NCBI RefSeq assembly: GCF_003334255.1
Contig: NZ_QOWU01000026.1
DNA: 63,217 bases
Source of the DNA: Escherichia coli
GTDB lineage: Bacteria > Pseudomonadota > Gammaproteobacteria > Enterobacterales > Enterobacteriaceae
Reading direction: 5' to 3' (one strand)
A program made the translations under genes and the position numbers. Positions within the stretch are counted from its first letter, which is position 1. The number at the start of each line of letters is the position of its first letter. The notes under the pieces are model-generated. The model was not told the origin of the DNA, did not search any database, and saw only the letters and a program-made list of their open reading frames with translations. Of the stretch, positions 50,772-50,867 are shown one piece after another.

Positions 50772-50832
50772 CAAAAAAACCGCATGACTGACGGGGCGGT
50801 TTCCGCTTGCTGTGGTGTGTTCAGCACCATGA
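50772..50832 (-). ncRNA. candidate ~60-nt terminated leader/sRNA upstream of ant
   Basis: A long imperfect hairpin CCGCTT..GGTG-ctgaaca-CACC..AAGCGG, then the terminator AACCGC-12 nt-GCGGTT plus T7 (50801-50773). Confidence 0.45.
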
Positions 50833-50837
50833 AGCGG

Positions 50838-50867
50838 AATATATCCCCGTCGATGTGGATTTGTCAA
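50838..50867 (-). promoter_or_regulatory. strong sigma70-like promoter driving the ant leader
   Basis: Minus strand TTGACA (50867-50862)-17 nt-ATATAT/TATATT. Confidence 0.5.

Follow-up and report, generated by a model that had tools for sequence, protein, structure and literature searches.

A probable c4-type antisense RNA module upstream of an AntA-type antirepressor gene in a lambdoid prophage of Escherichia coli

The antirepressor locus immI of phages P1 and P7 is reportedly laid out as the P51 promoters, a1, b1, c4, a2, b2, icd and ant1/ant2. Its c4 RNA is matured by RNase P. In P4 the order is said to be PLE, seqA, the terminator t1, the CI RNA (seqB), seqC and t4/timm, and the efficiency of t1 reportedly depends on the pairing of the CI RNA with the upstream copy seqA. 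This article concerns the DNA upstream of ant, an antirepressor gene on the minus strand of a 63,217-nucleotide stretch of Escherichia coli (contig NZ_QOWU01000026.1 of assembly GCF_003334255.1), the whole of which is called the window here. An initial annotation, made from the letters alone, had described a cassette at 50772-50867 consisting of a promoter, a short RNA and a terminator (hereafter cassette 2), paralogous to another at 41970-42085 (cassette 1). With a probability of about 0.82, the locus is a complete control unit for the antirepressor, of the P1 immI (c4) type, and the cassette is its 5′ part. The key component, a C4-like RNA encoded just downstream of the short RNA, had been missed.

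Antisense systems of this general kind are already documented, antirepressor genes included. The P1 annotation (NC_005856) gives the promoters P2c4/P1c4, then a1, b1, c4, a2, b2 (the last on the Shine-Dalgarno sequence of icd), icd and ant1/ant2. A c4 motif and a two-hairpin “c4-a1b1” motif were described by Weinberg (2010), whose supplement restates the competition of a1/b1 with a2/b2 for c4 proposed by Citron and Schuster (PMC2864571). In Gifsy-1, IsrK comes in two forms, one a short terminated RNA and the other the read-through isrK-orf45-anrP mRNA, whose translation is raised more than 100-fold by short IsrK acting in trans; downstream of IsrK lies STnc1160, a processed RNA of about 80 nucleotides (nt) that is complementary to it, and the authors liken the whole to seqA/CI/seqC of P4 (Hershko-Shalev 2016, PMC4825925). 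An “IsrK-C4 immunity system” has also been described in lambdoid prophages (Barquist 2013, PMC3632133). These four sources document kin systems, so that the earlier statement that such control was undocumented for this gene family does not hold. As for sRNA-Xcc1, the family to which the C4-like RNA belongs, it was first described from an integron cassette of Xanthomonas campestris (PMC2996969; Chen et al. 2011), and a study of APSE phages places it upstream of an ORF6N gene. In the literature searched we found neither a c4-type mechanism for sRNA-Xcc1, with a′ and b′ sites and flanking targets, nor a direct report of the cassette 2 RNA in Shiga toxin (Stx) phages.

The module reads as follows, the names of the sites (a1, b1, a′, b′, a2 and b2) following P1 usage.

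50838-50867, minus strand: sigma-70-type module promoter, with −35 TTGACA at 50867-50862, an 18-nt spacer and −10 TATATT at 50843-50838.
50813-50829, minus strand: a1 hairpin UGGUG-CUGAACA-CACCA, whose 7-nt loop presents a1, UGAACAC (50823-50817).
50806-50812, minus strand: b1 site CAGCAAG, repeating the word found at the Shine-Dalgarno overlap of ant, with a final G that is also the first base of segment 1 (GCGG) of the attenuator.
50773-50806, minus strand: three-segment attenuator, made of segments 1, 2 and 3 and U7, its sequence read directly and its function predicted.
50665-50753, minus strand: C4-like antisense RNA (Rfam sRNA-Xcc1, RF02221; 69.5 bits, where the gathering score is 53, and E = 1e-12 for the local region).
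50655-50671, minus strand: a2 hairpin CCCUG-CUGAACA-CAGGG, presenting a2, UGAACAC (50665-50659), in a loop identical to that of a1.
50622-50640, minus strand: b2 and start of ant, with b2 CAGCAAG at 50640-50634, Shine-Dalgarno AAGGA at 50636-50632 and ATG at 50624-50622.
49989-50624, minus strand: ant, 211 amino acids, with an AntA N-terminal domain (PF08346, 94.9 bits) and a C-terminal domain common with the cassette 1 protein.

The C4-like RNA lies on the same strand as its neighbors, between the promoter (50867) and ant (50624), inside what had been taken for a 145-nt leader; the region is indeed upstream of ATG 50624, but it is not a plain leader, since it holds the RF02221 match. That match is a full-length member of sRNA-Xcc1 at the curated threshold of Rfam. 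Its topology is that of C4, with a closing stem, hairpin 1, hairpin 2 and a 3′ single strand. The b′ site CUUGCUG (50699-50693) occupies the loop of the second hairpin, the a′ site GUGUUCA (50690-50684) the 3′ single strand, and the closing stem is followed by ACCC. Helices 5-7 show compensatory changes among homologues, and an equivalent RNA occurs at the equivalent place in four phages. Both sites are exactly complementary to sequences on either side: b′ pairs 7/7 with b1 and with b2, and a′ pairs 7/7 with a1 and with a2. The downstream b2 overlaps the ant Shine-Dalgarno AAGGA, 7 nt before ATG 50624, and no open reading frame (ORF), and hence no small icd-like one, lies between the C4-like RNA and ant. 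A pattern of this kind, with two independent 7-mers that each have two sense copies and one antisense copy in the 262-nt module, arises in at most 0.8% of 20,000 dinucleotide-preserving shuffles. Unrestricted RNAduplex runs on the whole RNAs gave alignments too long to interpret, and exact-match tables on the defined sites were used instead.

The complementarity is maintained as the sequences diverge. Copies of the module with about 90% identity occur in 31 phage records, most of them from Stx2a-converting phages, and in 112 complete E. coli genomes, which have them at up to three places each. A set of 47 copies (43 IMG/VR contigs found by a promoter-pattern scan and four phage loci; 20 distinct sequences) contains six classes of b site, CAGCAAG, CAAGUAG, AUACAAG, UGCAAAG, GCGAUAG and UCGAAAG, and two classes of a site, UGAACAC and CUCAAAAC. 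From class to class b1, b′ and b2 change in step, always with 7/7 cognate Watson-Crick matches at both targets; non-cognate b sites give at most 4 matches save in one comparison, where two classes share AGCAAG. Likewise CUCAAAAC covaries with GUUUUGAG, and the a2 hairpin covaries with a′ in the Nil2/L010 class (CCCU-CUCAAAA-GGGG). No other evidence speaks as strongly as this three-way covariation for a single pairing system made up of short RNA, C4-like RNA and ant ribosome-binding site; together with the flanking complementary sites, it would assign a c4-type mechanism to an sRNA-Xcc1 member. A covariance model of the short RNA was considered, and a regular-expression descriptor was used in its place; this descriptor, GCGG..CCGC..GCGG-T5, matches only cassette-2-type modules in the 698 kb of DNA fetched.

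The same association is seen from the protein side. Here loci were picked through the protein and not through the RNA motif, which avoids circularity: 77 loci of AntA homologues were taken from contigs of one genome per species, and 60 of them, from genera other than Escherichia, were scanned with Rfam. In 23 of the 60, a C4 or sRNA-Xcc1 RNA ends within about 150 nt of the ant start; four more have such an RNA 350-1000 nt upstream, and two have an isrK match only. The 23 loci include Yersinia, Entomohabitans, Phaseolibacter, many Pasteurellaceae, Marinomonas, Shewanella and a metagenome-assembled genome of a pseudomonad. A search for the motif at homologous ant loci, which the initial annotation had suggested, also finds the cassette-2-type leader itself, with an Xcc1-type RNA directly upstream of ant, in Phaseolibacter flectens (L052) and Shewanella marina (L124). 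The Phaseolibacter locus has a different promoter (TTGACA-17-CATAAT) and retains the GGUG-CUGAACA-CACC hairpin; it continues with b1 CAAGUAG, GCGG-AGU-CCGC-13 nt-UGCGG-U7, b′ CUACUUG and b2 CAAGUAGGA, and represents a seventh a/b combination.

Two further loci are of note. At a Glaesserella parasuis locus (L066, 1273-1342), Rfam AaHKsRNA82 (Aggregatibacter sRNA 82, 54 bits) occupies the position of the a1b1 leader, upstream of a C4 RNA and an ant homologue, and is probably the Pasteurellaceae version of the a1b1/IsrK element. A third cassette is carried by Escherichia phage Lyz12581Vzw (L004, 2043-2290), between the two annotated antirepressor coding sequences (1744-2031 and 2281-2910), possibly the two parts of a single split ant gene. 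The cassette has b1 CCAAAAG, an Xcc1-type RNA at 2155-2240 (74.5 bits) with b′ CUUUUGG, and b2 CCAAAGGAGG (one G-U pair); its terminator stem covaries to CCAAC/GUUGG with the loop CCCGUCAGU retained, and its leader has no obvious antiterminator segment.

The start of ant itself bears on how the upstream DNA is read. ATG 50624 is preceded by a Shine-Dalgarno sequence, corresponds to the annotated start in phage Lyz12581Vzw, and agrees with tblastn matches to Ant in other genera, which start at residues 1-5. The longer, 292-amino-acid ORF, already suspected in the initial annotation, is an artefact that runs through the promoter, the terminator and the putative antisense RNA.

Like immI of P1, cassette 2 places its parts in the same order on one transcript, with a duplicate a1/b1 upstream and an antirepressor as target. 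P1 c4 and the C4-like RNA have in common the closing stem, b′ in the loop of the second hairpin and a′ in the 3′ single strand, and in both systems b2 lies on a Shine-Dalgarno sequence. Even the interval from b1 to c4 contains the same element, UGCGG-ACAA-CCGCA-12 nt-UGCGG-UAUUUUUGUGUCC in P1 and GCGG-AAA-CCGC-12 nt-GCGG-UUUUUUUGUGUCC in the window, and GUGUCC after the U-tract is common to P1 and cassette 2. The specificity variants of cassette 2 are analogous to P1/P7 heteroimmunity. Of the analogies first offered, that to immI, with its a1b1/c4/a2b2 layout, is therefore the correct one. Contrary to P1, however, cassette 2 has no icd-like upstream ORF, and b2 covers the Shine-Dalgarno of ant itself; its antisense RNA scores as sRNA-Xcc1 (RF02221) and not as C4 (RF01695); its a1b1 leader has one hairpin instead of two; and its host is a lambdoid Stx-like prophage, with no C1 operator.

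The Gifsy-1 IsrK system resembles cassette 2 in its short RNA and read-through mRNA from one promoter, its complementary downstream RNA and its antirepressor gene, and the promoters of isrK and cassette 2 have a similar shape (TTGACA...GGG.TATATTC). Unlike isrK, the short RNA of cassette 2 lacks the first hairpin (P1, loop GCAAAAUC) and contains only the equivalent of hairpin P2, b1 and the terminator; there is no coupling ORF of the orf45 type, and the terminator is predicted to be conditional instead of constitutive. With P4, cassette 2 shares an antisense RNA encoded in the leader of the operon under its control, target copies on both sides of it, and a terminator before the antisense gene. 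The main output differs, being premature termination ahead of the replication genes in P4 and, as proposed here, occlusion of the antirepressor Shine-Dalgarno in cassette 2; antisense-dependent termination is experimental in P4 and a prediction in cassette 2.

The 5′ part of the module can now be described more closely. Its promoter, TTGACA-18-TATATT, matches the consensus at 11 of 12 positions, is the top-scoring site of the promoter scan in 49500-52000, and is kept in the phage and IMG/VR copies of the module. The −35 hexamer had been identified correctly; for the −10 hexamer, TATATT at 18 nt is a better choice than the ATATAT at 17 nt first proposed. Transcription is predicted to start near C50831/A50830, because the isrK match of cassette 1 begins 7 nt after an identical TATATT. 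The imperfect hairpin of about 37 nt that had been drawn next survives in its inner portion, UGGUG-CUGAACA-CACCA (50829-50813), the counterpart of hairpin P2 in the c4-a1b1/isrK motif, with a stem that is invariant across 20 homologues. The outer stem was rejected as an RNA structure: its UU/AA pairs are lost, with no compensating change, in 4-7 of the 20 distinct homologues. Its 5′ arm CCGCUU (50837-50832) lies 1-6 nt past the −10 hexamer, thus probably upstream of the transcription start and outside the RNA, and is missing from the Phaseolibacter and Shewanella versions. A leaderless ORF of 28 codons from AUG 50830 was also set aside as not coding, the AUG being missing in Phaseolibacter and in two further copies (L003/L011).

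Downstream of b1, the intrinsic terminator first described is present (CCGC, 12-nt loop, GCGG and U7, 50799-50773), although the terminator scan, which does not call loops of more than 8 nt, passes over it. It is part of a larger arrangement: segment 1, GCGG (50806-50803), is separated by AAA from segment 2, CCGC (50799-50796), and the 12-nt loop (50795-50784) leads to segment 3, GCGG (50783-50780), and U7 (50779-50773). Pairing of 1 with 2 is predicted to form an antiterminator with a loop of 3-4 nt, and pairing of 2 with 3 the terminator. In constraint folding of the leader up to the terminator 3′ arm, the free window leader has a probability P of 0.95 for the antiterminator and 0.00 for the terminator; when b1 and 3 further nt are blocked, P(terminator) rises to 0.68. 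Nine leaders were folded in this way (the six classes, Phaseolibacter, Shewanella and P1), giving P(antiterminator) of 0.38-0.96 and P(terminator) of at most 0.34 when free, and P(terminator) of 0.65-0.97 with b1 and 3 nt blocked. Four Pasteurellaceae leaders (L053, L055, L056 and L066) also have an antiterminator adjacent to b1 and show the same folding behavior. By this folding model the terminator would be gated by the antisense RNA, as at P4 t1. A pairing of the conserved terminator loop CCCGUCAG with the closing stem of the C4-like RNA was dropped, its matches of 4-5 nt failing in the Nil2 class.

One other complementarity of this region was recorded. The conserved promoter spacer GACGGGG (50845-50851, minus strand) is exactly complementary to CCCCGUC (50790-50796, minus strand), which covers part of the terminator 5′ arm and loop; in folds of transcripts starting at 50867 or beyond, neither the terminator nor the antiterminator survives this pairing, which is retained only in part in the other classes.

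What is read directly from the locus and its homologues are the parts, their three-way complementarity, its covariation and the association with ant genes. From these a mechanism can be proposed, in which the start of transcription, termination, processing, translational block, attenuation and decoy action are all predicted steps. One strong promoter would drive, in order, the a1/b1 decoy leader with its weak hairpin-U7 terminator, the C4-like RNA, the a2/b2 leader and ant. Read-through transcripts would be cut to release the C4-like RNA, which would then pair through b′ with b2 and through a′ with a2, cover the ant Shine-Dalgarno and block translation, so that the antirepressor stays off in the lysogen. 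The a1/b1 copy may have two roles, compatible with each other. In cis, b1 abuts the GCGG that, as antiterminator, otherwise pairs with the terminator 5′ arm; a C4-like RNA bound to b1 would free that arm and let the terminator form on the nascent transcript, capping the output of antisense RNA and ant mRNA alike, in the manner reported for CI RNA, seqA and t1 of P4. Acting in trans, the terminated transcript, about 55 nt long, would be a target mimic that titrates the C4-like RNA and turns ant translation on, like short IsrK in Gifsy-1. The variable 5 nt of the b sites would set specificity, allowing different prophages, and both cassettes of the window, to work without cross-regulation. Computation does not separate the cis and trans roles.

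A competing reading, to which we give somewhat less than an even chance, is that the short RNA works mainly in trans, as a stable anti-antisense RNA analogous to IsrK that sponges the C4-like RNA and so switches ant on, the terminator being leaky and ungated. Short IsrK works as an anti-antisense RNA in Gifsy-1 (PMC4825925). The short RNA of cassette 2 carries a1 and b1 and ends in a hairpin and U-tract typical of Hfq-dependent small RNAs, its cognate duplex reaches −56 kcal/mol against −38 to −39 for non-cognate ones, and the enterobacterial isrK-type leaders fold as constitutive terminators. A leaky terminator, however, hardly explains the conserved GCGG/CCGC/GCGG, with its 3-nt antiterminator loop against a 12-nt terminator loop. 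Moreover, in the window P(terminator) of the free leader is close to 0, and without gating it would rarely terminate, leaving little short RNA unless the C4-like RNA is present.

Several results weigh against the c4-type assignment or against the gating that is proposed with it. Rfam keeps sRNA-Xcc1 outside the C4 clan (CL00128), and the C4 model (RF01695) does not match 50665-50753 even at E ≤ 10; over the wider interval 50550-50950, isrK (RF01394) and C4 give no match at that threshold, and sRNA-Xcc1 alone is found. The folding energy of the short RNA is no better than that of shuffles (z = −0.26), and therefore stability alone is no argument for the element, while its local stems, hairpin and terminator, are invariant in the 20 distinct homologues and yield no local covariation signal. 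When only the 7 nt of b1 are blocked in the window leader, P(terminator) is just 0.14, and about 3 nt of further pairing are needed. A start of transcription at 50837 or earlier would let the outer stem form and make the terminator largely constitutive (P 0.65). Four isrK-type leaders, enterobacterial and from Marinomonas (window 41971-42049, L050, L073 and L126), behave as constitutive terminators in the folding test, and therefore gating is not general to the system. Cassettes 1 and 2 thus probably have a common design with different terminator logic, and on folding grounds there seem to be two regulatory logics within one family of systems. Finally, promoter activity, start site, termination and processing at the locus are all predictions.

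Could the hairpin-U7 simply end an upstream unit, either the 183-amino-acid ORF at 50890-51441 or read-through from cI, with a promoter that is incidental or merely that of ant and a short RNA without function? The distance suits this idea, as 111 nt separate the stop of the upstream ORF from the terminator, and transcripts that include CCGCUU (starts at 50837-50845) fold the outer stem together with the terminator (P 0.65-0.68). With starts at 50867 or beyond, however, the predicted probability of the terminator is about 0. The homology of most phage matches starts precisely at the −35 TTGACA and travels with ant, not with the upstream gene, and the element is retained in P1, Phaseolibacter and Shewanella, where the upstream contexts are unrelated. 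The a1 and b1 sites, placed between promoter and terminator, covary with a′ and b′ in six classes. We regard this explanation as improbable.

The initial annotation had also compared the cassette with a Q-type PR′-6S RNA-tR′ module, in which read-through into ant would need Q loaded at the promoter. The anatomy is superficially alike (strong promoter, RNA of about 55 nt, terminator), and the IsrK/AnrP cascade of Gifsy-1 ends in higher expression of antQ (PMC4825925), but there Q acts downstream and does not read the terminator. The module lies between cI and kil/recT/exo, not before lysis or late genes; no Q gene precedes it; it occurs at differing map positions and also in P1, which has no Q; and a Q-loading site would not require the leader to covary with a downstream antisense RNA and the ant Shine-Dalgarno, all of which makes this comparison barely credible. 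Equally implausible is the P22 sar analogy, an antisense RNA encoded in cis on the opposite strand across the ant ribosome-binding site: P22 offers a general precedent for antisense-controlled antirepressors, but the scan finds no promoter-like site on the plus strand in 49990-50870, and the C4-like RNA, the proposed regulator at this locus, shares the strand of ant and would act through short loop complementarities.

The paralogous design noted for cassette 1 stands, being an isrK and C4 pair that precedes an antirepressor gene of its own.

41803-42085, minus strand: cassette 1, with promoter TTGACA 42085-42080 and TATATT 42061-42056, isrK 42049-41971, C4 RNA 41945-41860 and ATG 41805.

Its Rfam matches are isrK (68.9 bits; RF01394, equivalent to the c4-a1b1 motif of Weinberg), of which it is a true member, followed directly by C4 (67.5 bits). 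The leader then carries UUAGGAAC and CAUCAACC-GGAGG before ATG 41805 of an ORF6N-type antirepressor. The sites are arranged as in cassette 2, but the words of this cassette, a UUAGGAAC and b UCAACC, are unrelated to those of cassette 2, and its b2 adjoins GGAGG. Duplex energies differ accordingly, cognate pairs giving −56 to −58 kcal/mol and cross-cassette pairs −38 to −39. The common C-terminal domain that had been noticed in the two antirepressors is confirmed, with 52% identity over 179 aligned residues, mostly in the C-terminal 100 or so, and their N termini differ (AntA PF08346 in cassette 2, ORF6N PF10543 in cassette 1).

What marks the locus as a variant of the known c4/CI/IsrK systems is the single-hairpin a1b1 leader, the sRNA-Xcc1-type antisense RNA, direct targeting of the ant Shine-Dalgarno without icd or orf45, the predicted gated terminator, and six or more classes. 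We suggest, tentatively and as less likely true than false, that this leader and its Xcc1-type RNA make up a distinct, uncatalogued branch of the c4/CI systems, in which one RNA gates its own terminator and locks the ant ribosome-binding site, with at least six orthogonal specificities among Stx-type prophages. If so, these specificities would decide which resident and incoming prophages cross-induce through antirepressors, and could influence the induction of Shiga toxin phages. Antirepressors can induce prophages without SOS, also across prophages (PMC3121763), and ant affects the efficiency of induction in the Stx phage phi24B (PMC3064807). A c4-type lock would make testable the silencing of ant in the lysogen, its release, and the insulation of co-resident prophages by class. 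The analysis also offers a mechanism for phage members of the sRNA-Xcc1 family. For annotation, the a1b1 element of the cassette 2 branch is invisible to the current Rfam isrK model, and automatic ORF calling yields a false Ant of 292 amino acids.

The window represents a lambdoid prophage resembling Stx phages; over 82% of 47000-55000 it shows 99.5% identity with Escherichia phage PhiR12_3. Cassette 2 lies between cI (52656-53369) and kil, recT (48144-49163, PF03837) and exo. At this map position, between cI and kil, PhiR12_3 (L126, 3960-4240) has another antirepressor, preceded by an isrK-type leader and a C4 RNA, with the words a UUAGGAC and b CAAUC.AGG, while Stx2a phages carry a cassette-2-type module next to int, about 4.5 kb from the int end. 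Because cassettes and map positions differ in this way, the RNA and ant together are a mobile, exchangeable module. In the window, a tRNA gene (37757-37828, minus strand, 63 bits) adjoins an ORF of 414 amino acids (37949-39193, plus strand), and the two may mark the prophage end that bears integrase and attachment site; some 4 kb away is cassette 1, at the position where Stx2a phages carry the cassette-2-type module.

Some neighboring features were recorded in passing. The 183-amino-acid ORF that immediately precedes the module on the minus strand gives no Pfam match; its N terminus is hydrophobic, and it may be a moron encoding a secreted protein or lipoprotein. The interval 52124-52426 holds what is left of a BsuBI-type restriction gene, a name taken from the annotation of PhiR12_3. 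Further on, a full-length Rfam match to the sok antitoxin (58719-58893, plus strand, 118 bits) implies a hok/sok-type toxin-antitoxin locus in or beside the prophage, and the small RNA STnc100 has a full-length match near the end of the window (62696-62912, plus strand, 149 bits).

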